Positions 2,569-64,000 of a stretch of 64,000 bases of DNA are shown piece after piece. The notes below the pieces were generated by a model. That model did no database searches, had not been told where the DNA came from, and was given only the letters and a program-made list of their open reading frames with translations. The DNA is taken from NCBI GenBank assembly GCA_965197525.1, contig OZ240211.1:416001-480000 (forward strand), written 5' to 3'. The DNA comes from Nitrosopumilus sp. Lineage in GTDB: Archaea > Thermoproteota > Nitrososphaeria > Nitrososphaerales > Nitrosopumilaceae. Within the stretch, counting starts at the first letter, position 1. Each line of letters opens with the position of its first letter. Both the position numbers and the translations under genes were made by a program.

Positions 2569-2805
2569 TGTTCTGTCAGGTTATCGAGAGCTAAAAAAAG
2601 GTGATACAATGAGCAGCGATTCTAAATGATAACAGATACAAGTATTATCTTTTTGTCTAATCATCGAGTAAAAATAAACTGGCAGACCGGCAATCCAAAT
2701 AGTAGATATAACAGTCAACAATACGAGATTTGACTCGTTAACTTGAGAGAAAAATGACATCAATTTTTGAGTTAATATATTAGATCTCTATAACCCGACA
2801 GAACC
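2569..2805. mobile_element. 237-bp non-autonomous mini-element with IS6-like TIRs, related to the tnpB elements
   Basis: TGTTCTGTCAGGTTATCGAGA (2569-2589) versus the reverse complement of 2785-2805, GGTTCTGTCGGGTTATAGAGA, match at 18/21. Segment 2763-2786 matches 37640-37663 at 23/24 on the opposite strand. No TSD. Confidence 0.65.
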
Positions 2806-12041: not shown

Positions 12042-13347
12042 GGTTCTGTGAAGTTATAGAGACCTTATTTATGAGGATAGGCGTACATAAATGCCCCAAA
12101 ATCATAGAATATTGGTTGAAGGCAATAAAGTCAATAGCACAAAAATATACGCCAAACTCTGACCTAATGGATATGATGGCCACATTCACAGAAATGGTTA
12201 ACCGTTGCATCAAGATAGGGTTAAAAGAAGACACACACAATATGAAAAGGCTATCATGTCTATGCTATCACGAATTGAGAGACTATGACATTTTATCGTC
12301 ATACAAACTAAATGCAATATCAAGGGCTACTGGCATATTGGCAAACAGAAGACAGTCAATAAAACGTGGTGTCAAGGTTAGATACCCAAAGGTAACAAAG
12401 CCGTTTATCACTAATTGTTACGGTATAAAACACAATGGTGCGCTACTCACAATCCCATACAAGAGTAGAAATTCAATCAACATCTTGTTAAACCCGCATA
12501 CCCAAAAAATCCTGTCGAATCCTGACTTGACAGTACGCTCGTTTTCATTGACTGCCTTTAGCATCAATCTTTGCGTTTCCAAGGAGACTGAACAGATAGA
12601 ATGTACCAAGACGGTAGGAATCGATAGAAATTTGAGGAATGTTACATGTGGCAATGAGGAGCAAGTAACATTTTACAAGACAAACAAACTGCTATCCATA
12701 AAAGAGAACACCATGCACGCCAGAGCCGGATTCCACAGAAATGATCGCAGAAAGAAAGGTCAATTCTGGAAGATAAAACAGCGAAGAATGGCCAATAGAA
12801 CAAAACAATACATACACAGAATATCAAAAGATATTGTGGATAATGCCGTCAAAGAAAAGGCTGTAATCGTTCTAGAAAACCTAAAAGGAATTAGAAAACT
12901 CTACAAAAAAGGAAATGGCCAAGGCAACAAATACAGGCGCAGATTAAACGGATGGCAATTCTACGAGTTACAACGCCAAATAGAATACAAAGCCCAATGG
13001 GTCGGGCTCCCGCCAGTCGAATATGTAGACCCAAAAAACACGAGCACGCAGTGTCCAAGATGCGGAAAGAAACTCCAAGAGGACATGCAACACAGACGTA
13101 AAATGTCGTGTAATAATTGTGGATTGTACACGGACAGAGACATTGTAGCTGCCATGAACATATCACGCAAACCGTCCCCTAGGTTTAGGGATAGCAGAGA
13201 TGACATAGGTGAAGCGCAGTCCGGTGTTTTTGAACCGGCGATGATGGAACCCTGCATACCGGTAATCCAGATAGTCGATATGTCAAAGTCGAGTGATAGG
13301 AGGATATAACTTGTTAAATCAACAGGTACCTATAACTTTACAGAACC
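12042..13347 (+). mobile_element. TIR-bounded tnpB element, copy 1 (1306 bp)
   Basis: Left GGTTCTGTGAAGTTATAG versus right end reverse-complemented GGTTCTGTAAAGTTATAG (17/18). Flanks ATTATATC and AAAATAAA are not duplicated. Confidence 0.85.
12116..13309 (+). CDS. tnpB: TnpB RNA-guided endonuclease (copy 1)
   Basis: RuvC-I VGIDRNL, RuvC-II VLENL, Zn ribbon CPRC...CNNC, RuvC-III DRDIVAAMNI. TTG start at 12116 aligns with the MKAIKSI start of copy 2. Confidence 0.93.
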   Translation: MKAIKSIAQKYTPNSDLMDMMATFTEMVNRCIKIGLKEDTHNMKRLSCLCYHELRDYDILSSYKLNAISRATGILANRRQSIKRGVKVRYPKVTKPFITNCYGIKHNGALLTIPYKSRNSINILLNPHTQKILSNPDLTVRSFSLTAFSINLCVSKETEQIECTKTVGIDRNLRNVTCGNEEQVTFYKTNKLLSIKENTMHARAGFHRNDRRKKGQFWKIKQRRMANRTKQYIHRISKDIVDNAVKEKAVIVLENLKGIRKLYKKGNGQGNKYRRRLNGWQFYELQRQIEYKAQWVGLPPVEYVDPKNTSTQCPRCGKKLQEDMQHRRKMSCNNCGLYTDRDIVAAMNISRKPSPRFRDSRDDIGEAQSGVFEPAMMEPCIPVIQIVDMSKSSDRRI

Positions 13348-19254: not shown

Positions 19255-19719
19255 TCACGTATCCTCAATCAGCACCTTGAGATTCTCAAGTGAGTGTTTG
19301 TAAAAGGATTTCAAAGACGCGTAAAAATCACAGAATTCAACGGAAGTCATGGAGTGGCTATTAAAATAGGACTGCCATTGTAGTCTCACCGTATTACCAG
19401 ACAAGGGTCTAATGGATAATGTTGCAACATATGCTCGTAATGGCAGTCCATGCGTTGCAACATATGTAAAAGATTCATCGCTATTCCATGCAACAACATG
19501 CTCTTCAACAATATTACCATCTGCAAATGATATCAGCCGTACTGCCCCAATACCGCGTGTCTTCTTTGAGATACATGTAACCTTAGTTACACCATCTGCC
19601 CAAGCTGCCAATCCCATAACATTGCTAATATGTTGCCAAACCTGCTCTTGTGATGCATTGATTTTGATAGTTTGTTTAAGCATGTCGGTATGAAATGATT
19701 TTTTTGGTTTACGAGTCAC
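19255..19719 (-). CDS. SRPBCC/polyketide cyclase-family protein
   Basis: INASQEQVWQHISN...W...GIGAVR...EEHVVAWN...FTY fits the START-like fold. Confidence 0.85.
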   Translation of the reverse strand: MTRKPKKSFHTDMLKQTIKINASQEQVWQHISNVMGLAAWADGVTKVTCISKKTRGIGAVRLISFADGNIVEEHVVAWNSDESFTYVATHGLPLRAYVATLSIRPLSGNTVRLQWQSYFNSHSMTSVEFCDFYASLKSFYKHSLENLKVLIEDT

Positions 19720-19726
19720 AATATTA

Positions 19727-21014
19727 GGTTCTGTGAAGTTATCGGGAGTTAACCCCTATAACTCGACTTTGACATATCGACTATTCGGATTACCAATGGT
19801 GTGCTGGGTTCCGTCATCGCCTGCTCAAAAGTGCCGGACTGTGCTTCACATATGTCATCTCTACTGCCCCTAAACCTAGGGGGCAGTTTGCGTGATATGT
19901 TCATGGCAGCGATGATGTCCCTGTCCATAAACAAACCGCAATTATTACACGACAATTTACGATGTTGTTGCATGTCCTCTTGGAGTCTCTTTCCGCATTG
20001 CGGACACTGCGTGCTCGTGTTTCTTGGGTCTACTGTCTCGACTGGAGGTAGTCCGACCCATTGGGCTTTGTATTCTACTTGGCGTTGTAACTCGTAGAAT
20101 TGCCACCCGTTCAATCTACGTCTGTACTTGTTACCTTGAGTGTTTCCTTTTCGGTACAATTTTCTTATTCCTTTCAGGTTTTCCATGACGATTGCAGTCT
20201 TGTTTTTGACTGCGTTGTCTACTATATCCTTTGAGATTCTGTGGATGTACTGCTTTGCTCTGTTAGTCAGTCTTCTCTGTTTTTCCTTGTAGAACTGATT
20301 TTTCTTCCTGCGGTCATTTCTGTGGAAGCCTGCCCTGGCGTGTATTGTGTTCTCCTTTATGGATAACAGTTTGTTTGTCTTGTAGACTGTCACCTCTTCC
20401 TCGTTCCCGCACGTCACATTTCTTAGGTTTCTGTCTATTCCCACTTGATTGGTGCACTCTATCTCTTGTACTTTTTTTGAAACACAAAGACTGATGTTGA
20501 GAGCAGTCAATGAAAACGAGTGCACCGTCAAGGCGGGATCAGATAGGATTTTTTGGGTGTGATCGTTGAGCAAAATGCTGATTGGGTTATGTTTCTTGTA
20601 TGGGATTGTTAGTAGTGCACCGTTGTGTTTTATGCCGTAACAGTTTGTCATAAAGGGATTTTTGAGTATTGGGTCTCTTATTCTGACACCTCGTTTGATT
20701 GATTGTTTTCTGTTTGATAATATGCCTGCAGCTCTTGATATTGCACATATCTTGTATGTTGATAAAATGCCATAGTTACGTAATTCATGATAACATAACA
20801 TGGACAACCTCTTCATATTGTGAGTGTCTTCTTTCAACCCTATCTTGATGCAATGATTGACCATCTTTGTGAATATAGCCATCATATCCATTAGATCAGA
20901 GTTTTGCGCATATTTCTGTGATATTGACTTTATCGCTTTCAACGAATATCTTACGGTTTAGAGGTTTATACATTTTAGGAATTGACATATAACTCCCGAT
21001 AACTTCACAGAACC
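19727..21014 (-). mobile_element. TIR-bounded tnpB element, copy 2 (1288 bp), with 8-bp TSD
   Basis: Perfect 25-bp TIR GGTTCTGTGAAGTTATCGGGAGTTA at 19727-19751 and, reverse-complemented, at 20990-21014. CAATATTA at 19719-19726 and 21015-21022. Confidence 0.95.
19749..20942 (-). CDS. tnpB: TnpB RNA-guided endonuclease (copy 2, intact)
   Basis: VGIDRNL, VMENL, CPQC...CNNC and DRDIIAAMNI. 397 aa. Confidence 0.94.
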   Translation of the reverse strand: MKAIKSISQKYAQNSDLMDMMAIFTKMVNHCIKIGLKEDTHNMKRLSMLCYHELRNYGILSTYKICAISRAAGILSNRKQSIKRGVRIRDPILKNPFMTNCYGIKHNGALLTIPYKKHNPISILLNDHTQKILSDPALTVHSFSLTALNISLCVSKKVQEIECTNQVGIDRNLRNVTCGNEEEVTVYKTNKLLSIKENTIHARAGFHRNDRRKKNQFYKEKQRRLTNRAKQYIHRISKDIVDNAVKNKTAIVMENLKGIRKLYRKGNTQGNKYRRRLNGWQFYELQRQVEYKAQWVGLPPVETVDPRNTSTQCPQCGKRLQEDMQQHRKLSCNNCGLFMDRDIIAAMNISRKLPPRFRGSRDDICEAQSGTFEQAMTEPSTPLVIRIVDMSKSSYRG

Positions 21015-21365
21015 CAATATTACAAAAAATGAGAGGAATTTTAAATTTTATTCTAGTAAAAACAAGGATATTTTACGTTTATTCGTTTACCGTTGTGCTT
21101 GGTTCTTGAATCACAATACATCAAAAACAGAATCACAGTTTAACATAAAAAAAAGTGCCATAGCAGTCAGAATTCATACATGTGCTACTTGTCTTCCATC
21201 GTGCGTTGCCTGAGAGCGAAGATCAACAAAAGAGACAAAACTGAAATTTGTAATTTATGATTTATCAAACTGCTGTACCTAGTATCAACCTGTGTTCTCA
21301 GAGTCAGGCATAACATCGCACTAGACAAAAACAACTATTTTTAATCCCTAATAACAAATAGCAGT

Positions 21366-37618: not shown

Positions 37619-38402
37619 AATTCTGTGAAGTTATCGAAGGATCTAACATATTAACTCAAAAATCAATTTCTTTTTTTATATAAAGTTAACAAGTCAAGCC
37701 TCGACTAGTTAACATTGACATATCAACTATCCAGATTACCGGTCTGTAGGGTTCCGACATTGCTAACTCAAAAGTGTTAGTCTGCGCTTCACTTATGCCA
37801 CCTCTGCTATTCCTAAACCTAGGGGACAGCTTGCATGATATATTTATGGGAGCTACAACATCTCTATCCATCATAAATAATCCGCAATTATTGCACGACA
37901 TTTTACGTCTGTGTTGCATGTCCTCTTGGAGTTTCTTTCCGCATTGCAGACATTGTGTGCTCGTGTTTTTTGGGTCTACATATCTTACCGGCGGGAACCC
38001 GGCCCATTGGGCTTTGTATTCTATTTGGCGTTGTAACTCAAAGAATTGCCATCCGTTCATTCTACGTCTGTATTTGTTGCCTTGACCATTTTCTTTTTTG
38101 TAGAGTTTTCTTATTCCTTTTAGGTTTTCTAAAACGATGACAGTTTTTTCTTCGACGGTAGTATCCACAATATCATCTGTTATTTTGTGCAGATATTGTT
38201 TTGTTCTATTATTCATTCTTCTCTGTTTTTCTTTATAGAACTCACCTTTCTTTCTACGGTTATTTCTAGGGAATCCAGCTCTAGCATGTATTGTGTTCTC
38301 TGATAGATAACATCTTGTTTGTCTTGTAAAATGTCATTTTTATTTCATTTCCACAAGTTACATTTCTAAGGTTTCTGTCTATCCCTACTACATTGGTACA
38401 CT
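37619..38402 (-). pseudogene. tnpB: tnpB element copy 3: 5'-truncated, frameshifted tnpB with an eroded TIR
   Basis: AATTCTGTGAAGTTATCG at 37619. ORF 37686-38216 keeps RuvC-II and RuvC-III. CTNVVGIDRNL near 38370-38400 lies in another frame (shift near 38305). The 5' portion (about 160 codons) is absent. Confidence 0.88.
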
Positions 38403-38977: not shown

Positions 38978-40543
38978 TTGACACACAATTCCTCACACCC
39001 TACAAATCCAAAATTATTCTTTGACAAAGGTACAATTTGTATTAGAGATGCAAAATTAGTAAGAATTCCAAACACAAAATATGATGATAAAAACCATGTA
39101 CTTCGATCATATGCTTTGAACTATCAGGATATTGTAGATTATTTAGAAAAAAGTGATCTTGATTTTATCGACAAGGTACAGGATTTGATTCCATCACATA
39201 CGCTACAAATAAGAGATTTAAAACTACGAGACTATCAAAGACAAGCAGTAAAAAACTGGGAAGAAGCATCAATGAGGGGTTGTGTTGTACTGCCCACAGG
39301 CGCAGGAAAGACTGCCATAGGAATAAAAGCAATTCAAGTAGTGAATTCTTCAACACTAGTTATAGTACCAACCATTGATTTGATGGAGCAGTGGATTGAA
39401 AACATCTCCAAGTACTTGTTTGTGGATAATATTGACAATGGTAATGGTAATGGCGGTAATAACAAAAACGACAACGGCATGGACGGCAATACGGTACAAA
39501 AACTAACCATCGGCAGATTAGGCGGAGGAGAGGAAGACATCCAAGCAATCACAGTAACAACTTATGATTCTGCATATCTAAAAGCATCAAATATTGGAAA
39601 TAAATTTAAATTTATAATATTTGATGAGGTCCATCATCTTCCAGCACAAGGATATCGCACTATTGCAGAACAGTTTACATCACCGTACAGATTGGGATTG
39701 ACTGCAACGATACAAAGAGAAGATCAGCTACACGAGTTGATACCCCAGCTTGTTGGAGGTGTTGTGTTTGAGACAGATTCAAAACAGCTGTCATCACAAA
39801 GTTATCTAGCAGAACATACCATCAATAGAATACAAATAAATCTAACACCAGACGAACAAAAAGAGTACGATACCAATTATACAAAATTTCTAACAAATCT
39901 AAAACAGCTTGGATTCAAAGGCGGGCCGTCATTTTATAATCTCAAACAGCTAATCATGATCTCAAACAAAAACAAGATGGCAAGACAAGCAATACTTGCT
40001 AAAAATAAAGCAAACGAGATAGCATTAAATAGTCAGGCAAAGATAGAGAGGCTCAAATCCATATTAGAAGAGAATGCACATACAAAGACAATAATTTTTA
40101 CACAGAATAACAAAATGGTTTACAAGATATCTGACAGATTTTTAATTCCATTTATCACATACAAGACAGTAAAAGATGAGAGAAGGGATGTGCTAAAAGG
40201 ATTCAAATCCAACAGGTATAACGCAATTGTAACATCCAAGGTTTTAGATGAAGGAGTGGACGTTCCAGACGTAGAATTAGGAATAATAATTAGTGGAACA
40301 GGCAGTAAGAGAGAGATAATACAGAGGCTAGGAAGACTGCTAAGACCAAAACGAGATGGCAGAAAAGCAAAACTTGTTGAACTAGTCTCAAGCCACACGC
40401 ATGAAACAAGAACTAGTGCAAAGAGAATGTCAGCACTAAAAGAAAAGAACAGGAGTGCCCCCTCCTCTGTTACGACTGTCGTTACTACGACAGATATAAG
40501 AGATAAAACGAGCACAAAAACGTCAAATAAGGAGGAGGGGTAA
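38978..40543 (+). CDS. xpb: XPB/Rad25-like SF2 helicase
   Basis: LRDYQ, LPTGAGKT, DEVH, TAT, LDEGVDVP and QRLGRLLRP. Confidence 0.9.
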   Translation: MTHNSSHPTNPKLFFDKGTICIRDAKLVRIPNTKYDDKNHVLRSYALNYQDIVDYLEKSDLDFIDKVQDLIPSHTLQIRDLKLRDYQRQAVKNWEEASMRGCVVLPTGAGKTAIGIKAIQVVNSSTLVIVPTIDLMEQWIENISKYLFVDNIDNGNGNGGNNKNDNGMDGNTVQKLTIGRLGGGEEDIQAITVTTYDSAYLKASNIGNKFKFIIFDEVHHLPAQGYRTIAEQFTSPYRLGLTATIQREDQLHELIPQLVGGVVFETDSKQLSSQSYLAEHTINRIQINLTPDEQKEYDTNYTKFLTNLKQLGFKGGPSFYNLKQLIMISNKNKMARQAILAKNKANEIALNSQAKIERLKSILEENAHTKTIIFTQNNKMVYKISDRFLIPFITYKTVKDERRDVLKGFKSNRYNAIVTSKVLDEGVDVPDVELGIIISGTGSKREIIQRLGRLLRPKRDGRKAKLVELVSSHTHETRTSAKRMSALKEKNRSAPSSVTTVVTTTDIRDKTSTKTSNKEEG

Positions 40544-40551
40544 TAGTAGTA

Positions 40552-42246
40552 GTGCTCTCATCAGATCTGCTGCGAACGAGGATTAGTCGTGGACGTATTG
40601 CCCCAATATTCTGCAGTACAAATTTTGGCAAGGGGACAGACTATGAACTTGCCAACAAAATTATCACATCTTTTGTAGATGCCAAAAAAAATAATCAGAC
40701 AAAGGGTCAGATGATAGAGAACATGACCGCAATCGAATTACAATATGATCATAAACTAGTTAGAGGACTATTTGCATTACTTGAGAGGCGTTCTACATTT
40801 CAGAGAGTTCAACTCTCTGGCAGTACGTCAACTCCTCAAACTATTAGACAGATATTGTTTGAAGAGTCATCAAAACGAGGTTTAGCATTATCGGTATCAC
40901 AGAGACAAGACATAATAAAACAGGTTGCGCAACAGATGCATCTGCATCCAGAAGAGATAGAGACTGCAATGTGGAGTGATAAAGAAGAGAACCTAGTACT
41001 AGTACAATTTGATACCATTAGCCCAAAAGATTTAATTTTGTGGTACAATCTGTCACTAGCCCAAACACTCCTATTCAAGTGTACAGGACTAGAATTTTAT
41101 GTAAAGGGAGGAATGCATTGGAAACGCGTACTAAGAGATGTAAAGAAATACGGATTGATGTACAGTTTAGAGCATGAAAAGTATAACGACGGAAAAGGCA
41201 ACAAAGACTCTTCTATAAAATGCGTTTTGGATGGACCTCTTAGTCTGTTTAAAATGACTGATAAATACGGAACATCCATGGCAAAATTGTTACCATCAAT
41301 AGTAGGCACACCAACATGGAGAATAAACGGTTCAATAGTCAGAAAAAACGAGAATGGGCAAAAGATCTACGAGTTTGAGCTATCAGATGAGAACACAAAA
41401 GATGTAATCCGAGAGGTAGCCGATGCAGCATACCAAGATAATGATTATGATGACCGAATATACGATAGCTCAGGTGAGGCAGCATTTGCAAAAAAATTCT
41501 CTCAATACTTTGATCAGCAAGACAAACTCGGATGGAGAATTTCACGTGAACCGGATCCATTGATTGCCAACGGAAAAGCCATGATACCTGATTTTCTCTT
41601 TGAGAGATTCGGACGAAGAGTATATCTAGAGATTGTAGGATTTTGGACAAGAGAATACCTTGACAGAAAGGCAGCCAAGCTCAAGGCATTGTTTGATAAT
41701 AACGACAATACAGACCAGAAAAGCAATGACAAAGTTGATCTCTTGGTGGCAGTAAACTCAGAATTGGCATGCTCACAGATAAAGAGCATCTCATATGATA
41801 GAATTTTCACCTTTCAAAAAGATGTCCCAATAAAACCTATTTTAGAACATTTAAAAAAAATTGACGCTCAAATTCTCAAAGAGAAGATTAGTAACACCGT
41901 AATCAATCTTGAAGAAAGCAATTCAGATATAATTTCTATAAAAGACGTTGCAGACAGATACCATATCCCAAAACAGGCAGCAGTGCAGATTATCTCTAAA
42001 AGATATCCTAATAGTTATGTCGTACTAGAGTCGCATCTAATATCAAAAGACAAGGCAGACATCATAAACAATATGATATCAGAAATTTCAGAGTTTGTCC
42101 AAGCATGCAAGATATTGACATTGCAGAAAATTCCCGATTCATGTCATGCCGAACTGATATCAAAGTTAGGTTATGATGTAATTTGGAGTGATCTAAACCC
42201 AAATAACGCAAAGATTGTAAAGATAGCAACAAGTAATTCTATATAA
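40552..42246 (+). CDS. bax1: Bax1 (DUF790-family) endonuclease, partner of XPB
   Basis: DGPLSLF...KYG..MAKLLP and IPDFLFER...YLEIVGFWT.EYL.RK. Lies directly downstream of xpb. Confidence 0.88.
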   Translation: MLSSDLLRTRISRGRIAPIFCSTNFGKGTDYELANKIITSFVDAKKNNQTKGQMIENMTAIELQYDHKLVRGLFALLERRSTFQRVQLSGSTSTPQTIRQILFEESSKRGLALSVSQRQDIIKQVAQQMHLHPEEIETAMWSDKEENLVLVQFDTISPKDLILWYNLSLAQTLLFKCTGLEFYVKGGMHWKRVLRDVKKYGLMYSLEHEKYNDGKGNKDSSIKCVLDGPLSLFKMTDKYGTSMAKLLPSIVGTPTWRINGSIVRKNENGQKIYEFELSDENTKDVIREVADAAYQDNDYDDRIYDSSGEAAFAKKFSQYFDQQDKLGWRISREPDPLIANGKAMIPDFLFERFGRRVYLEIVGFWTREYLDRKAAKLKALFDNNDNTDQKSNDKVDLLVAVNSELACSQIKSISYDRIFTFQKDVPIKPILEHLKKIDAQILKEKISNTVINLEESNSDIISIKDVADRYHIPKQAAVQIISKRYPNSYVVLESHLISKDKADIINNMISEISEFVQACKILTLQKIPDSCHAELISKLGYDVIWSDLNPNNAKIVKIATSNSI

Positions 42247-42317
42247 TTGGTATGACATTGTTGAGGGTATTTACTGCCATTCGATGAACAATACGATCAT
42301 CATCAAAATACTTTGAT

Positions 42318-42656
42318 CTAGTTTAGATCAGATGCGTCAACTTTTCCGACAAATACCTTGTTATCCATTATTACTATAGGACGCAGAATCAACCCAGGGT
42401 ATTGTACCATTAGCTTGATTATCTGGGTATCTGATTTGACAGATTCATCCAAACCAAGTTCTTTGTACATTTTATCTCGTTTTCTTAAAAGTTCTGAGGG
42501 GGTTTTGCCTGTCATCTGAATTATCTTTCCAAGCTCTTGCTCTGAGAACGGATCCTTGAAGAAATCTCTTGTTTGGATGTCCAGATTCATTCGTTGAATT
42601 TCTGTTATCGCTTTTTTACATGTGATACATTGAGTCTTGTGGAATATTTTTTTCAA
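42318..42656 (-). CDS. ArsC/Spx-family protein
   Basis: CITCKKA, RDFFKDP and PGLILRPIV. Confidence 0.85.
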   Translation of the reverse strand: MKKIFHKTQCITCKKAITEIQRMNLDIQTRDFFKDPFSEQELGKIIQMTGKTPSELLRKRDKMYKELGLDESVKSDTQIIKLMVQYPGLILRPIVIMDNKVFVGKVDASDLN

Positions 42657-42891
42657 TGCGATTCATTGATACAATCTGAATAGACACTAAAAATTGTTTA
42701 TATGGCAGACATGTAAACGCAGGTTCTGCTGAAATTCTCCTTAGTGCTCCAAGACAGACAGGTAGCTGAACTGCCAGACAGAAGACGTGCTTGCCAGAAC
42801 GCAATCCGTTAAGAAAACCCAGACTACAAGGCACAAACATCATATAAATATAGAAAAAATTCAAATTCTACTTTGGTATACTAGTAACAGG

Positions 42892-43026
42892 ATGATTTGT
42901 GCTGCATGTGAGACAAGAAAGCATTTTGAATGTATAGATTGTATGAATAATCACAGTACTCATTTATGCAGCTGTGATTGTCATGATGAGAACACCAAAC
43001 CCCATACAGTAAAAAGAGAGCATTAG
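42892..43026 (+). CDS. Small Cys/His-rich protein (44 aa)
   Basis: MICAACETRKHFECIDCMNNHSTHLCSCDCH. Internal ATG of the listed ORF, 7 Cys. Confidence 0.5.
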   Translation: MICAACETRKHFECIDCMNNHSTHLCSCDCHDENTKPHTVKREH

Positions 43027-43030
43027 ACAG

Positions 43031-43705
43031 TCAGTTCTTGAACTTTCTTTCAATCTCAGAGGCCATTAGTTCTAGACGGCTAGTATCACCCAATTTTCGA
43101 TAGGTTAATTTTTCAAGAGTCTTGATAATGCTAATAGCCGATCGGTATTGCGGGATTCCGGGATCATTTAACTCGCCATACATGCCAATTCCTTGAATAT
43201 CATTCTTTTTGGCAAAGCCTAGAATCAATCCATTAAATCCTGTAATTACTGATTTAGGAGTCATCTCTACATCCAAATTTTTTATTTGATCAGTTAACTG
43301 CATGGATGTTGTAGTAATGAATGTCTTGGGTTTATTGCCAAATATTCGATTCGTGTGAAGCCCTCCCAACGTATAGATAAATTTTACAGAGTGTTTTTTT
43401 GCAACATCAATGACATCTTGGCACAAGTCATACAAATCTGTTATTTGTGGCTGACCTTTACCGCCTCCAAATACTATCAAATCATCTGTGTATTTGTATT
43501 CCCAACACTCATCAGGGAGATCAATGTATCCGCCCCTATCCAAAACATATGTAGGAGATAATGTTCGTGCAGTTCTAAATGTATGGGTTCCAAGAGAGCT
43601 ATTGATAAAATTAATTACAATGTTTCCAACATTGCCCATATCCTGCATAGCAGCAATTAGTATGGGTTTCTGTACGTCAGGCTCTACATTTTGGGCAAAC
43701 TCCAT
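43031..43705 (-). CDS. PAC2-family (proteasome assembly chaperone-like) protein
   Basis: DMGNVG, IYTLGG and GFNGLILGFAK...GIGMYGE. Confidence 0.82.
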   Translation of the reverse strand: MEFAQNVEPDVQKPILIAAMQDMGNVGNIVINFINSSLGTHTFRTARTLSPTYVLDRGGYIDLPDECWEYKYTDDLIVFGGGKGQPQITDLYDLCQDVIDVAKKHSVKFIYTLGGLHTNRIFGNKPKTFITTTSMQLTDQIKNLDVEMTPKSVITGFNGLILGFAKKNDIQGIGMYGELNDPGIPQYRSAISIIKTLEKLTYRKLGDTSRLELMASEIERKFKN

Positions 43706-44122
43706 ATGACATAATAGAATTTAACAAAGTTTAAACTTACTGCAAGATATAGTAGTGTTTTTTATTATGTGATACTTGTTGTGTTAACGTTATTCAGTTG
43801 GCATAGATGACTGCTGTTATTTATCACTATTTTATGAAATTTGATAATCAAATAATTTCTTATAGAAGAAGAAAAGGATGCACTATTTGAGAGTTTTTTT
43901 AGTTGATTTGTCTAATAGTGTTGATAATAGCTACAGTACCGGCACTAGCCGCTACCGAATATGCACCTCACATACAGTGATATAATATAACTATCAAAAA
44001 ATTATTCCTTAAAACTTGACAACTACTCTTATTTTAACTCTTGTGGCAACCCGATTTGCGTTTTAATGTAAATCTGCAAATATCAAGATTCATAAGGCAA
44101 AAAAAATTTCTAATGACAAATT

Positions 44123-45846
44123 ATGGAGATCAACGCAGAAAATATTGGCACACTGGAGTATGTGCTGGACAAATACTCAAAGATCTGGTGCTGGAAGATT
44201 ACAGGTGAGCGTGCAGTGAGCATGATATCAAGACTTGTTCCCGAAGCTTGGTATGGTGAGAGTATCAACGAAGTGATAATTCCAGATACGGTTGAGAGTG
44301 TCAAGCAGTTAAAACTCATAATGGAGCGATATCCGCTAACGATTTTGTCAAAGTCAGCATGGCAACGAAAGATTGTAAAGACATATGACCCAAAGCCTGC
44401 AATGCCGCTTGTCAAGTTAAGCTGAAACGTGCAAAAGCAGGTGAACAGTTCAGAGGAAAGTTATTGAACTTTCAAAAAGAGGGACTAGACTTTCTAATAA
44501 AATCATCAGGTAATGCACTGTTAGCAGATGAGATGGGACTTGGAAAGACCGTACAGACATTGGCTTATGCTGCAACAGAAAAGCAGACGTTTCCCATACT
44601 AGTCGTAGCTCCGCTAGTCACATTAAACAATTGGGAGCGAGAGATTGAAAAATTTCTAAAGAAAAAGAGCAGGAATGGAAGAATCGTAGATGCGGAATCC
44701 CCTAGTGTGACAATTATACGAACAGGAAAGTCGCAAGAACTGCCAAAGACTGACATCTACATTATCAACTATGAATTGCTCTTCAAGAGGAAAGATGACC
44801 TGTCAAAACTTGGAATAAAAACAATAGTATGTGACGAGGTACACAATCTACGATCAAAGACTACACAGAAATACAAGGCAGTAAAGAAACTAGCGGCGTT
44901 GCCTGCAATTAGGTACAGAATCGGTCTTTCAGGTACCCCAATTTACAATCGTGGTTCAGAGATATGGCCAATAATTGACATAATAAAACCAGGTCTGTTA
45001 GGAAATTTTAAAGAATTTTGTGAGTACTTTTGTTATGTCAATGATAAGGGCAAGGCAATAGTACTAGAGAATAAACGAGCATCACTTAGAAACGAGCTAC
45101 AAAAGCATGTAATGCTGCGAAGAAAAAAGTCAGATGTTCTAAAAGAGCTTAAAGACAAAGTCAGATACAAAGAGATCATAGCAGCTGACACGGACTACTA
45201 TCTAGAAGAGTTAGATAAGATATGGAAAAAGGTAGAGACGGAACAAAAAGATGCGGATAGCGAGTTCTCAAAATCGGCATCATACTATAGAGCAATACAA
45301 AGTGAGAGACAGATTGCAGGTATTGCAAAACTACCGCATGTAATCAATTTCGTTAAAAACATCATGGAGATTGAAGAGAGTGTAGTGGTGTTCTGCCACC
45401 ACAAAGTGATTCACAAGTTACTCCATGAAAGTCTGCAAGAATTCTCACCTGTATCAATTATTGGAGGGCAGTCAGATCCACAAAGACAGGAGAACATTGA
45501 CAAATTCCAAAAAGGCGAATCAAAACTAATGATCGCAGGAATTCGTGCAGGTAATGTTGGAATCAATCTCACAAAGGCCAAATACGTCATATTTTCAGAA
45601 CTTGATTGGAGTCCGGCCATTCACAGACAGGCAGAAGACAGGCTGCATAGAATAGGTCAAAAGAATACAGTATTTGCATATTATTTGATCGGAAGCGGTA
45701 CGCTAGATGACCATGTGGCAGACATACTAGTGGACAAGAGTTATGAGATTGATGAGATTATGGATGAAACAGTAGACAGTTATGAGAACAAAGACAAGGC
45801 AGAACTTATCTTGGCACAAATACAAGACAAGGTTCGTTCAAAATAG
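44123..45846 (+). pseudogene. SNF2-family helicase split by a single frameshift near 44417
   Basis: The N-terminal ORF ends ...VKLS* at 44425. A shifted frame continues KLKRAKAGEQFRGKLLNFQKEG into ADEMGLGKT, DEVH and QAEDRLHRIGQ. Confidence 0.8.
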
Positions 45847-45896
45847 TACTATGGACAACAACGAATATCTACACAAGCGTTCATAATTCAAAACAA

Positions 45897-46514
45897 TTAG
45901 ATTTTCAACTGGTCCTTTAGTTGGTACAACTTTGCAAGGATTGAATCTTTCTCTAGTTGATTAAACTCCATATCCCGAATCTCCTGTACTATCTCGTCTA
46001 TCTTAGATAGGATCTCTACTTGGGGTTTTATCGCATCAGTTGCAATATTGGCAAAACCGTCTACATCCGTTTTGTCTATACGTTGCACGCCTTTGGGTAA
46101 GATTTCAAAAACTTTTACCAGTCTTTCCTCTTGTCTTTGCGGCGACATTAACACAAACTGGTTCTTTCGCAACTCTTCGATATGTAGTACAATGTCATCG
46201 TGAGGAATCTTTAGAATATTAACAATTTGTTGTATAGTACATGACTTTATCTGTAATAGCCTCAGTATCTTTGCCCAAACAGGAATGTTCTTACTCCATA
46301 GAATCTCGCGAGCAGTATCAGTAATGGAAAATGAGCCGTCAGAGCTGTTTAATGTTAACATCTGTCTATCTTTGAGTGTAGCAAGACAGTCCAAAAGTTT
46401 GCCAACACCTAGTCTTTTCAACTCAGAGTGTTCTAAATGATTTTCATTGAATGCGCCATTTTGATTAATTGCCAGATGCAAGATCTCAAGATCTATTGTG
46501 CCCAATCTCCGCAT
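45897..46514 (-). CDS. Hypothetical protein with winged-helix domains
   Basis: 205-aa ORF containing TIQQIVNILKI...HIEELRKNQFV. Confidence 0.7.
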   Translation of the reverse strand: MRRLGTIDLEILHLAINQNGAFNENHLEHSELKRLGVGKLLDCLATLKDRQMLTLNSSDGSFSITDTAREILWSKNIPVWAKILRLLQIKSCTIQQIVNILKIPHDDIVLHIEELRKNQFVLMSPQRQEERLVKVFEILPKGVQRIDKTDVDGFANIATDAIKPQVEILSKIDEIVQEIRDMEFNQLEKDSILAKLYQLKDQLKI

Positions 46515-46813
46515 ACCGTTATGGCAGTATCAATATTTATCACTCTTTCTACCAGGCAATCTTTGCAAATAAAGATAAACGCGGTACCCGAATATGTCAT
46601 TGGAATTCATAAAAAAGAACGCCTCTTACATCCTAACAGATTTACAAAAAGATGATACTATTATGATGATGATAATTATGATGCATCTCTCCTCTGATTA
46701 TTATATCAAACATAAACATCACTGTAGCCGTCATAAATGCATCTAAAGACCGTACTATCATAGTAACAACACAAGTCCTTGAAGAATATATGAGGACCGG
46801 AATAATCTTGCTT

Positions 46814-47437
46814 GTGGTACAATATGAACTCCCAAGACTGCATTTTGGATATGAAGAGTTAGAGCCATTCATAGATAAAGAGACGATGCGGATTCATCAT
46901 CAAAAGCACCATCAGGAGTATGTTGACGGATTAAACAACACGCTTGAGGATATAAAAGGCACAGCGCACCCTCAATACATCTCATCAATTCTGAGTAATT
47001 TAGATACAATACCTGAATCAGGACGGGGGGCGATTAACTTTTTTGGAGGAGGGTTTGAGAATCACAGACTATTCTGGGAAACTATTACGCCTGATGGCAA
47101 AAAGCGGCCAAAAGGAGTGTTAGAGGATGCAATGGACATTTATTATAATTCTTTTGAGAATTTTAAAGAGATTTTTTCTAAAAAAGCGTTAGATATTCAA
47201 GGAAGTGGATGGTGCTGGCTGGTCTTCAATGAGACATATCATAAGATTGAGATCGTCACAACAAGAGACCATGACAGCCCATGGACCATCCAAAAATATC
47301 CTTTACTAGGATTGGATGTTTGGGAGCATGCATACTATTTACAATACCAGAACAGAAGATATGACTATATCAAAGCATGGTGGAATGTCATCAACTGGGA
47401 TTATGTGGAGAATAGATTTTCAGAATTTGCAAAATAA
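46814..47437 (+). CDS. sod: Fe/Mn superoxide dismutase
   Basis: ELEPFID.ETM.IHHQKHHQ, NH..FW, QGSGW and DVWEHAYY. GTG start at 46814 inferred. Confidence 0.96.
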   Translation: MVQYELPRLHFGYEELEPFIDKETMRIHHQKHHQEYVDGLNNTLEDIKGTAHPQYISSILSNLDTIPESGRGAINFFGGGFENHRLFWETITPDGKKRPKGVLEDAMDIYYNSFENFKEIFSKKALDIQGSGWCWLVFNETYHKIEIVTTRDHDSPWTIQKYPLLGLDVWEHAYYLQYQNRRYDYIKAWWNVINWDYVENRFSEFAK

Positions 47438-47679
47438 TAAAACAAAATATAGCACGATTTTGAAAGCCAACATAAATCTTCATAAATGATGATAAGTGAC
47501 GTCCAAATTATATCAGAATAATCAACAATCGTATCAGAATGCCATAGGTAGTATAGATGTCAGATGGCTGTTGTATGAATAATTCTAATTGATCTATAGT
47601 TTGTGTATTAACTAATAGCGCAATTATTAAAATGACGTATTGAAATCGTTTATAAAAATAGATATACGCTTAATGGTAA

Positions 47680-47994
47680 ATGAATAGGAAAATTGTATTG
47701 GGTATATTACTAGTGATAGCAGTACTATTCATTGCATCGAATTTACTTGATAGTATAACTGAGAATAATGATGATAATGACGGATCCAACATGTTTGTTA
47801 ATCGCATCGATTCAGAACAACCAGGAGATGATTGCCGTGAGTTAATATTTAGCGAAGATGAAAACAGTTGGATAGAATCAACAAATTCATTTGATGTTAC
47901 TATTAACGAGTGTGATGAAAAATTCCAAGAGTGTTATGCAAAGACAGGTAATGTTTACGTAGAACTTGTACAATGCTATAACGACATTCCATGA
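47680..47994 (+). CDS. Small secreted hypothetical protein
   Basis: N-terminal hydrophobic helix and four Cys. Confidence 0.55.
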   Translation: MNRKIVLGILLVIAVLFIASNLLDSITENNDDNDGSNMFVNRIDSEQPGDDCRELIFSEDENSWIESTNSFDVTINECDEKFQECYAKTGNVYVELVQCYNDIP

Positions 47995-48374
47995 TGATAG
48001 CATGTGAATTATGTATCAGAGGGTATCCATTGCGTAGAAGTATTGTAAAATTATAAACAAAAGGTCATGGTACATAGCATCAAGAGATCTTAAACAGCAA
48101 AGATGTCAGATATATGATTATCATAAGCGATTAATGATTTGAGAGCATGCAAAGAATGGAGAAGAGAGAAGGAAAGAGGAAACTATCGAACCAACGCATC
48201 TGCAAGACAAAGAAGTGTTATTGTAATTGCCCATTTGTTGATCTATTCAGGTAAAATCAAATTTTTTGTTGTCATTGTGAACACTTTACATTTGTTAAAT
48301 TATAAGACAAAATTATTATAAATATTAAGAGAATGAGCTGTATGATTTATCTTTGATCACGAATATGTTATAAC

Positions 48375-63386: not shown

Positions 63387-64000
63387 GGTTCTGTGAAGTT
63401 ATCGAGGGTTAACCCCTATAACTCGACTTTGACATATCGACTATTCGGATTACCAATGGTGTGCCGGGTTCCGTCATCGCCTGCTCAAGAGTGCCGGACT
63501 GCGCTTCATATATGTCATCTCTACTACCCCTAAACCTAGGGGGCAGCTTGCGTGATATGTTCATGGCAGCGATAATATCCCTGTCCATAAACAAACCGCA
63601 ATTATTACACGACATTTTACGATGTTGTTGCATGTCCTCTTGGAGTCTCTTTCCGCATTGCAGACACTGCGTGCTCGTGTTTCTTGGGTCTACTGTCTCG
63701 ACTGGAGGCAGCCCTACCCATTGGGCTTTGTATTCTATTTGGCGTTGTAACTCGTAGAATTGCCACCCGTTCAATCTACGCCTGTACTTGTTACCTTGAC
63801 TGTTTCCTTTTCGGTACAATTTTCTTATTCCTTTCAGGTTTTCCATGACGATTGCAGTCTTGTTTTTGACTGCGTTGTCTACTATATCCTTTGAGATTCT
63901 GTGGATGTACTGCTTTGTTCTATTGCTCATTCGTCTCTGTCTTTGTTTCCAGAATTGACCTTTCTTTCTGCGATCATTTCTGTGGAATCCTGCCCTAGCG
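63387..64000 (-). mobile_element. tnpB: TIR-bounded tnpB element copy 4 (3' part; continues beyond the window)
   Basis: GGTTCTGTGAAGTTATCGAGGGTTAA at 63387. The tnpB frame is open from the window end to the stop at 63409 and is closely similar to copy 2. Confidence 0.9.

Follow-up and report, generated by a model that had tools for sequence, protein, structure and literature searches.

The window, which is the whole 64 000-nucleotide stretch of DNA that was analysed, comes from a sponge-associated Nitrosopumilus archaeon and contains a 1288-bp (~1.3-kb) mobile element at 19727 to 21014. The single long ORF of this element (19749 to 20942, minus strand, 397 aa) is tnpB, and tnpB together with its putative guide-RNA scaffold is all that the element holds; it encodes no transposase. 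The element belongs to subfamily A of a larger set. Its features, and those of its relatives within the window, are as follows (window positions; TIR, terminal inverted repeat).

19727..21014, minus strand: the complete non-autonomous element (1288 bp; subfamily A), in which two TIRs enclose tnpB and the omega-RNA scaffold
19727..19751, plus strand: TIR at the tnpB 3' (guide) end, containing the tnpB stop codon; 0 mismatches
20990..21014, minus strand: TIR at the tnpB 5' end; 0 mismatches
19719..19726, no strand: 8-bp target-site duplication CAATATTA, copy at the tnpB 3' end; predicted guide nt 1-8 on the minus strand
21015..21022, no strand: 8-bp target-site duplication CAATATTA, copy at the tnpB 5' end
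21023..21025, minus strand: TTG, a TAM-like motif of the W-T-R type that adjoins the duplication on its 5' side in tnpB orientation
19707..19726, minus strand: flank predicted to encode the guide (the duplication and a further 12 nt) by read-through beyond the tnpB 3' end, as the TAM-N8 geometry would place it
19749..20942, minus strand: tnpB, 397 aa, RuvC D-E-D and zinc ribbon intact
19770..19887, minus strand: conserved structured RNA (putative omega-RNA scaffold core)
2569..2805, plus strand: derived miniature of 237 bp; its ends are related and it retains part of the scaffold
12042..13347, plus strand: full 1306-bp copy of subfamily B with tnpB intact; duplication no longer present
37619..38402, minus strand: truncated copy keeping the tnpB 3' end side; its end begins AATTCTGT
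63387..64000, minus strand: full subfamily A copy running past the window end to genome position 480674; 94% identity; duplication GTTGATAG

The two 25-bp repeats (GGTTCTGTGAAGTTATCGGGAGTTA; 19727 to 19751 on the plus strand against 20990 to 21014 on the minus strand) match without a mismatch, whereas none was expected from 100 shuffles. The outer tips of multi-copy contigs start exactly at 19727 and 21014, the element borders, and the tnpB stop codon lies within the 3' repeat, 22 nt from the element end. An earlier note on this DNA had described an intact tnpB as the only gene between perfect 25-bp repeats flanked by an 8-bp duplication, and had expected the empty site to be a single CAATATTA. 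Both descriptions hold. Two contigs of run X4, from a different study, connect 19718 to 21015, omitting 1296 bp (1288 + 8), and the eight letters common to both sides of this junction are one CAATATTA. In relatives within the genus the flanking genes are syntenic and 65-70% identical; the intergenic region there is about 50 bp, in comparison with about 330 bp here, and the exact empty site is unreadable in it. A blastn search of the plasmid collection with the element gave no match.

The host genome (a single contig, 99% complete) contains 33 TIR-paired full copies in ten subfamilies, plus miniatures, and 16 of the 33 fall into one subfamily at 90% identity or more. The family has inserted independently many times: perfect 8-bp duplications, all different, flank 21 of these copies, and an unbiased genome-wide search found 29 elements with inverted repeats and a duplication. 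The other 12 full copies have no reciprocal flank matches at 7/8 or better. With regard to the cointegrate (copy-in) transposition of the IS6 family, the flank patterns (L010 and L013) show only later recombination between copies. Copies with inverted ends and 8-bp duplications are also present in other Nitrosopumilaceae, and in further families of the phylum homologues of TnpB with as little as 30% identity are likewise bounded by GGTTCTGT-type ends and 8-bp duplications. The pattern is therefore common to other full copies, as anticipated, but the three further copies first listed for the window are not all alike: the one at 63387 is a full relative with its own duplication, the one at 12042 belongs to another subfamily (81% identical to the 19727-21014 element, ends alike at 21/25 positions) and the one at 37619 is truncated. 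The host's second TnpB family, carried in 1637-bp elements, is a separate case, in which three insertions (a small sample) have no common upstream motif.

The 397-aa ORF is identified as TnpB by its RuvC D-E-D residues and CxxC...CxxC ribbon. It matches Pfam Cas12f1-like_TNB (PF07282; 1e-20) and scores 122.5 bits against NCBIfam guided_TnpB, for which the cut-off is 100. The motifs GIDRN, MENL and DRDIIAAMN and the zinc ribbon CPQCG...CNNCG are visible in the translation. RuvC-II, RuvC-III and the ribbon align to solved Cas12f and TnpB chains; this alignment begins at residue 194, so GIDRN is assigned by eye only. The ORF is intact in 32 of the 33 full copies. Values of dN/dS of 0.28 (within subfamily A) and 0.13 (between subfamilies) show that tnpB is under purifying selection.

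An ordinary tnpB element of the IS200/IS605 (IS1341-type) or IS607 kind would be moved by an HUH or serine TnpA, and its inverted ends and repeats would be incidental. The protein does score against the TnpB models of those families, though below their cut-offs, and its RuvC-III motif is of the DRDxN form, which PMC10691335 gives as that of typical TnpBs. The perfect 25-bp repeats, the 21 different duplications and the single-copy empty site speak against this reading. Neither Y1 HUH TnpA (PF01797) nor serine recombinase TnpA (PF00239) has a match in the 99%-complete single-contig host genome, and the ends, which are not hairpins of the IS1341 type, are held in common with DDE elements. This reading is already contradicted by the data and we regard it as having practically no chance of being correct.

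The same genome has eight DDE_Tnp_IS240 matches. One of the transposase elements is an intact 1970-bp IS (genome 746475-748444; SWIM-DDE transposase at 746963-748099) that is flanked by an 8-bp duplication of its own and whose ends agree with those of tnpB subfamily D in the first 18 nt. Subfamily E and the transposase element at 699962-703151 have ACGAGTGGTA in common. In other genomes, the ends of L071 (tnpB) and L048 (transposase) agree at 22/25 positions by hand count, and those of L091 and L037 at 21/25. No transposase-carrying element with ends identical to those of subfamily A was found; the best agreements are 17/19 (L037) and 14/16 (L026), and in L026, which lies in the closest MAG, the right end is similar to that of subfamily A and the left end is missing. 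No two-gene element with both a DDE gene and tnpB was seen, and the cargo ORFs of ten transposase-carrying elements are not TnpB-like.

The putative partner transposases are about 375 aa long, with an N-terminal SWIM-like zinc-finger motif (assigned by eye) and a zinc ribbon. They match Pfam DDE_Tnp_IS240 above its cut-off, and a putative partner scores 102.8 bits against NCBIfam transpos_IS6 (cut-off 125), with IS1 as second-best. The ends have the GG tips and cTGTt motif of IS6 and GGTTCTGTG/T in all subfamilies, and the 'caaa' motif is absent. By these features the partner is IS6-like but no clean member of IS6. Because the ends of several tnpB subfamilies match those of IS6-like DDE transposase elements, mobilization in trans by such enzymes, encoded elsewhere in the genome, is the probable and well-supported mode of movement. 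The earlier idea of an IS6-derived element moved in trans by a DDE transposase is supported: none of the three findings that the note had named as refuting it was made, as other full copies do have inverted ends and duplications, the empty site is one CAATATTA and IS6-like DDE elements with matching ends are present.

The RuvC domain of TnpB and the DDE enzymes have related, RNase H-like folds, and the old idea of an 'IS1341-type transposase' would make TnpB itself the transposase of these elements. It is the sole gene and is under purifying selection, and three of 11 other TnpB-positive genomes of the family, one of them with >12 tnpB matches, have no transposase match at E <= 1e-30. Additionally, tnpB-only elements are mobile without an intact tnpA in Haloquadratum (PMC3119063). 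However, like ends and 8-bp duplications also occur on miniatures without a gene and on elements whose cargo is unrelated (small ORFs, a methyltransferase-HNH gene), the ends match those of DDE-encoding elements, and transposase activity of TnpB is unreported in the cited literature. We consider a transposase role for TnpB highly improbable.

The sequence next to the insertions follows a strict rule. On the side upstream of tnpB, W-T-R abuts the 5' border of the duplication (positions -11 to -9) in 35 of 35 insertions, mostly as TTG or TTA; its background frequency is 8.8% (binomial p about 1e-37). On the opposite side it occurs in only 2/35. The elements from the unbiased search give 26/26. 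The side that carries the motif tracks the orientation of the RNA scaffold, gene-less miniatures included. From this rule we infer that W-T-R is probably the TAM and that the guide would consist of the duplication and the 3' flank. TAM-dependent, RNA-guided DNA cleavage by TnpB is predicted, and the W-T-R + N8 rule bears on it only indirectly. The TAM-N8 rule is the new part of the finding, and it bears out the earlier suggestion that the change of transposon type alters how guide and target are set.

W-T-R could instead be a target preference of the mobilizing DDE transposase; mobilization in trans would be the same, and TnpB would be cargo whose targeting is unrelated to the geometry of insertion. 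DDE target consensus sequences are usually palindromic, so a motif found on one side in 35/35 insertions and on the other in 2/35 counts against such a preference. Like-ended transposase-carrying elements with duplications are at chance level (W-T-R on 4/30 sides), as are the host genome's own two, one of which has the 18-nt ends of subfamily D (0/4 sides). These controls comprise only 15 elements, a small and phylogenetically diverse set to which a search of five IS-rich relatives added few usable elements, and none has ends identical to those of subfamily A; both points leave room for a preference. The motif, however, follows scaffold orientation even in miniatures without a gene, and the geometry is exactly that which a TAM and a flank-derived guide require. 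A transposase preference is in our judgement improbable.

The putative scaffold overlaps the 3' end of tnpB and is kept in gene-less miniatures. All ten miniatures with homology retain part of the 3'-terminal region of tnpB (about 40 to 395 nt; 250 nt or more in eight of them) and no more than 25 nt from the 5' end of the parent. The core has three helices: 19863-19887 folds into a hairpin, 19851-19857 pairs at long range with 19770-19776, and 19820-19837 forms the inner hairpin. In this core 97.8% of cells are paired, compared with 82.7% in shuffles and 29-39% when the structure is slid, and 16 of 19 pairs show compensatory change. Rfam gave no family match, its sole hit being a chance one (E = 0.17). 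A variable spacer of 0-90 nt and the 25-nt repeat separate the flank from the last conserved block of the scaffold, which is unusual where a guide must abut its scaffold. One hairpin loop is invariant (GGTTT or GGTTC) and complements the terminal GAACC, and we speculate that the two may form a loop-tip pseudoknot; L091, the sole element with an altered tip, has no clean compensation in the loop. Assembled contigs of the sponge metatranscriptome X5 cover the element, most deeply over the 3' part of tnpB, and one extends from the 3' repeat into another flank. Because contig depth cannot rank the parts of a gene and such libraries can contain DNA, we draw nothing from this coverage.

Taken together, the data lead us to favour, with reasonable confidence, a non-autonomous OMEGA module within IS6-like inverted repeats that is mobilized in trans by a DDE transposase, takes its guide from the flank and has W-T-R as its TAM. 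IS6-like DDE transposases would recognize GGTTCTGT-type ends and make the 8-bp duplications. Because tnpB ends within the 3' repeat, a read-out transcript would carry scaffold, repeat and then duplication plus flank as guide. In the empty allele, W-T-R followed by the duplication and 3' flank would provide a TAM and a full guide match, and the TnpB-RNA complex of each copy would thus be directed against the empty site of that copy. The match at the occupied site would be limited to 8 nt, and the repeat end (ACC) would be no TAM.

On the accepted view, cleavage of the empty donor site by TnpB causes the transposon to be copied back, a role that is based on HUH or serine transposases, which insert beside the TAM and leave no duplication. 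The same homing logic would here be kept in a DDE element that duplicates eight variable bases, with the TAM one duplication upstream and the duplication as the start of the guide, and the purpose of TnpB would presumably be homing or retention. Should IS6-like transposition be replicative, the element would not be excised, and the published rationale of restorative homing would then not apply as such.

The rule raises the question of whether TAM recognition biases DDE insertion or homing alone filters the insertions. It is possible, although we think it rather doubtful, that TnpB, through TAM recognition, steers the DDE transposase or filters the insertions that persist and spread by homing into empty alleles; in both cases all surviving insertions would have the TAM + N8 placement in one orientation. 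By our own derivation from standard DDE strand-transfer geometry, the 3' repeat, beside the guide RNA, would be the end that attacks the strand next to the motif, which would agree with steering. Were steering or filtering true, a protein of the RNA-guided nuclease type would act as target selector or gene drive for an archaeal IS6-like DDE element, a guide-independent counterpart of CRISPR-associated transposons. The favoured reading predicts a W-T-R TAM, a guide that begins at the first base after the 3' repeat and places the scaffold between window 19727 and about 19950. The element also supplies a compact (397 aa) archaeal TnpB with many natural guide/target pairs.

Several known systems resemble this element in part. 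Like IS1341-type members of IS200/IS605, it is non-autonomous, has a single tnpB with the scaffold over its 3' end and gives rise to gene-less derivatives that keep the RNA part. Unlike them, it has inverted ends and duplications in place of subterminal hairpins and an HUH TnpA that inserts beside the TAM; IS607 elements, with a serine recombinase TnpA, likewise have neither inverted repeats nor duplications. A typical IS6 transposase has roughly 230-250 aa, whereas the putative partners, with their SWIM-like and zinc-ribbon N-termini, are of about 375 aa, fall below the NCBIfam IS6 cut-off and are routinely accompanied by cargo. With the IS6 family (IS26, IS257, IS240; Varani et al., 2021, PMC7986276) the elements have in common GG tips, cTGTt, 8-bp duplications and, in the putative partner, a DDE_Tnp_IS240-type catalytic domain; typical IS6 members are 700-890 bp long and only one ISfinder member has a passenger gene (PMC7986276). 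The PATEs of Haloquadratum, gene-less derivatives of IS200/IS605 (PMC3119063), have also lost tnpB and kept the element ends. The Nitrosopumilus miniatures, which also keep part of the guide RNA, differ in being bounded by inverted repeats and duplications, and they are therefore MITEs of a DDE element.

The novelty of the pairing had been overrated in the earlier note. Published work already describes TnpBs that are associated with DDE transposases and lie between inverted ends, as well as solo TnpBs that have these ends in common with them (Altae-Tran, 2023, PMC10691335). In that paper, the prokaryotic TnpB branches DDE-1 to DDE-6 lie within symmetrical inverted terminal repeats with the tnpB 3' end within 250 bp of the transposon end, and solo copies are thought to be moved in trans. 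The present elements likewise have symmetrical ends, a tnpB 3' end within 250 bp and ends in common with transposase elements. The DDE partners named in the main text are IS630 (PMC10691335) and, in a review, ISL2, IS630 and IS1031 (PMC13565253); IS6-like partners are not named in the main text of either paper, and neither text mentions a TAM one duplication length upstream of the end. PMC10691335 also describes TnpB as lacking clusters of >30 copies, whereas the Nitrosopumilus genome holds 33 full copies, 16 in one subfamily at 90% or more. The eukaryotic Fanzor1 proteins are also TnpB-family nucleases in DDE transposons with inverted repeats and target-site duplications (Bao and Jurka, 2013, PMC3627910; PMC13565253). 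The duplication of the Fanzor1 transposons is short and fixed (TA, for example) and is taken to belong to the TAM; in the Nitrosopumilus element, in contrast, the duplication is variable and 8 bp long and would belong to guide and target, the TAM lying immediately upstream of it.

The window element is bounded by terminal inverted repeats (TIRs) that form a perfect 25-bp inverted repeat, GGTTCTGTGAAGTTATCGGGAGTTA (none expected from 100 shuffles), and CAATATTA lies on both flanks as an 8-bp duplication. Each of these features, together with tnpB as the only gene, had been described in the earlier note and was found again. That note also listed three more copies with the same ends; copies are present at all three positions, but they are not all alike, one belonging to another subfamily, one being truncated and one being full. 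The features of the window are:

19727-21014, whole element, 1288 bp
19749-20942, minus strand, tnpB ORF, 397 aa, the sole long ORF in the element
12042-13347, full copy of another subfamily, 81% identical to the window copy, duplication lost
37619-38402, truncated copy
from 63387, extending past the window end, full copy, 94% identical to the window copy
2569-2805, miniature (gene-less derivative), 237 bp

The window TnpB matches Cas12f1-like_TNB in Pfam (1e-20) and scores 122.5 bits against NCBIfam guided_TnpB, exceeding the cut-off of 100. The motifs GIDRN, MENL and DRDIIAAMN and a CPQCG...CNNCG ribbon are readable in its translation, and RuvC-II, RuvC-III and the zinc ribbon can be aligned with solved chains of Cas12f and TnpB. 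Its close relatives are in Nitrosopumilus and Thaumarchaeota MAGs. The element lies directly upstream of a 154-aa ORF (19255-19719, minus strand, GTG start) in the same direction, and a transcript reading through from tnpB would enter this ORF.

The site of the window element could not be read in the genus relatives searched, which are too divergent. Contigs from public sequencing runs were aligned to the locus. Two contigs of X4, a run from a different study with a ~94% identical flank, join 19718 to 21015, skipping 1296 bp (1288 + 8), with 8 letters that could belong to either side. Without the insertion, the allele therefore holds a single CAATATTA, which is the empty site that had been predicted. 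In runs holding the organism, contigs of other copies stop exactly at 19727 and 21014. One of the runs containing some of the flank is a sponge metatranscriptome, with a small share of it only. The ~300 bp that separate the element from the next conserved gene (21023-21330) have no counterpart in genus relatives, where the spacer is ~50 bp; this sequence is present in the X4 strain too.

The host genome is a single contig of 2.21 Mb (39.6% G+C, 99% complete), in which the TnpB TNB domain has 52 matches. End pairs were sought around TnpB matches with frames of roughly 400 aa, giving 33 full elements whose inverted ends are of the GGTTCTGT type; in 32 of these elements the tnpB ORF is intact. 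At the 90% level the elements form ten subfamilies, and subfamily A, that of the window copy, has 16 members. Tallying the duplications over all copies, as the earlier note had proposed, gave perfect 8-bp duplications in 21 of the 33, all different, and duplications with one mismatch in two more. The dN/dS of tnpB is 0.28 among members of subfamily A and 0.13 when subfamilies are compared, and tnpB is therefore maintained by selection. Neither a Y1 HUH transposase nor a serine recombinase was found in this 99% complete genome.

Several other repeats were seen outside the window. Another tnpB-only family, unrelated to the first, has ends GGGAATTAYATAC... and open frames of ~546-582 aa, with no upstream motif common to its three insertions:

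genome 879513-881149, 1029182-1030818 and 545581-547217, 1637-bp tnpB-only units, 8-bp duplications AATTCAAT, CTAAATCA and TAAAAAAA

An 851-bp element (genome 883991-884841) is flanked by the duplication TATTACTG, has perfect 25-bp ends of the GGTTCTGT type, is without tnpB or scaffold homology, and holds only small ORFs rich in lysine and glutamate. BLAST of one transposase locus returned long arrays with a ~204-bp period and 74-93% identity (genome ~924577-930259, 983682-986812, 1460900-1467798 and 39244-48005), which may be giant repetitive genes. In another genome, the inverted copies L010 and L013 (OZ245003.1, ~1.325 and 1.45 Mb) have reciprocally swapped flanks (TAGAAACT/TTATGTTA versus TTATGTTA/TAGAAACT), the signature of a ~125-kb inversion via recombination between copies.

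DDE_Tnp_IS240 has eight matches in the genome. The intact proteins (~375-385 aa) have an N-terminal CxCPDH...CKH (SWIM-like, by eye), a zinc ribbon and a DDE domain; a helix-turn-helix is probably also present, judging from the family layout (PMC7986276), and had no Pfam match. In NCBIfam, IS6 comes first at 102.8 bits, below its cut-off of 125, and IS1 second; the transposases are therefore termed IS6-like. An intact insertion sequence (IS) lies in the genome:

genome 746475-748444, IS6-like IS, 1970 bp, inverted ends 29/30, own 8-bp duplication

The ends of this IS recur in two sister copies, and their first 18 nt, GGTTCTGTGTAATCTTCG, are identical to the ends of tnpB subfamily D. Likewise, ACGAGTGGTA is common to the ends of subfamily E and the transposase element 699962-703151. 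In other genomes, the ends of tnpB locus L071 and transposase locus L048 agree at 22/25 positions (hand count of printed ends), and those of L091 and L037 at 21/25. Transposase elements with matching ends, which the earlier note had asked for, are present in the genome for subfamilies D and E; no transposase element with exact subfamily A ends was found. The idea that an IS6-derived non-autonomous element is moved in trans by a DDE transposase is supported, the movement in trans being putative.

Of 151 genomes sampled from the family, 57 have the IS6-like transposase and 12 have the TnpB clade of the window copy; among the other 11 TnpB-positive genomes, three gave no match to the transposase (E <= 1e-30). 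Among TnpB homologues from further families within the phylum, GGTTCTGT-type ends and 8-bp duplications persist at identities as low as 30%, so the association of TnpB with these ends is old. Transposase-carrying elements routinely hold cargo such as a methyltransferase-HNH gene or small ORFs; tnpB was cargo in none of those inspected. Two IS6-like transposase elements outside the window (genome 699962-703151 and 917093-923763) have a DNA methyltransferase-HNH nuclease fusion as passenger. The second of them, 6.7 kb long, is bounded by ends of ~42 bp that begin GGGGCTGTTAAG; its duplication is CATTATTT, and it has another, nested end as well.

Alignment of the 3' ends of subfamilies, distant homologues and miniatures revealed three helices and nearly invariant blocks, a putative guide RNA scaffold overlapping the tnpB 3' end:

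19863-19887; 19851-19857 with 19770-19776; 19820-19837, scaffold helices

With the structure fixed ahead of counting, 97.8% of cells pair, compared with 82.7% in shuffles (0/500 as high) and 29-39% with partners slid, and 16 of 19 pairs have changes on both sides. No Rfam family matches. Homology was detectable in ten miniatures, all of which retain part of the tnpB 3' region (~40 to 395 nt; at least 250 nt in eight), with at most 25 nt left of the parent 5' end. A chimeric non-autonomous element outside the window (genome 1394563-1396016, 1454 bp, E-type ends) has, from the tnpB 3' region, just the final 169 nt, covering much of the scaffold, and a piece related to the upstream region of the group-b transposase; its duplication is TATTTTTC, with W-T-R, the motif considered next, on the expected side.

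Insertions with perfect duplications were oriented by tnpB, or by the retained scaffold in miniatures, and 35 were drawn from the host genome, a further two Nitrosopumilus MAGs and three genomes that are more distant. W-T-R lies directly 5' of the upstream-side duplication (N8) in all 35; the middle T is present in 35/35 and the motif is TTG or TTA in 26. Its genome-wide frequency is 8.8% (binomial p ~1e-37), and it is at the mirror position of the other end in 2/35. When the whole genome was scanned in an unbiased way for GGTTCTGT-type pairs of any kind that have a perfect duplication, 29 elements emerged: W-T-R is on the scaffold-upstream side in 26/26 with a scaffold core and on 0/4 sides of two transposase elements. 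In genomes of the family, it is on 4/30 sides of 15 transposase-carrying elements with perfect duplications. The motif therefore tracks the TnpB and RNA module rather than the ends themselves. A target preference intrinsic to the transposase is an improbable rival source of the rule.

W-T-R is a putative TnpB recognition motif (TAM). The empty allele reads W-T-R, then 8 bp, then the 3' flank, the layout a TAM needs, and a transcript exiting the 3' repeat would carry the 8 bp and 3' flank as guide. For the window copy the order is TTG then TAATATTGTGACTCGTAAAC, the predicted guide. Once the element is inserted, ACC stands at the TAM position of the 3' junction, and the guide match at the 5' junction is just 8 nt. 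The rule could arise by a filter, the transposase inserting anywhere and only TAM-adjacent insertions persisting or spreading; TnpB would cut empty alleles, thereby driving copying of the element. Or integration itself could be biased by TnpB binding to the TAM. By our own derivation from standard DDE geometry, the 3'-OH of the RNA-side repeat would attack the phosphodiester right after the R of W-T-R, and attack at this point would suit a tethered complex.

Inverted ends and duplications are both lacking from elements of the IS200/IS605 and IS607 types (PMC13565253, PMC6188088). Altae-Tran et al. 2023 (PMC10691335) describe six DDE-associated TnpB branches, each with inverted terminal repeats, in which the tnpB 3' end is mostly <250 bp from the transposon end; they also describe solo TnpBs with ends resembling those of transposase-carrying relatives, and name IS630 as a partner. 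A 2026 review (PMC13565253) names ISL2, IS630 and IS1031. The IS6 family is marked by GG tips, a cTGTt motif and 8-bp repeats, and its review records one member with a passenger gene, TnpB being absent from the text (PMC7986276). Full-text literature searches returned no paper pairing TnpB with IS6-type ends, and none describing a TAM one duplication length upstream. As to whether the pairing was already catalogued, TnpB in a DDE element with inverted ends is a class already published; new here are the putative partnership with an IS6-like transposase, the extent to which the family has expanded and the rule of TAM + N8.
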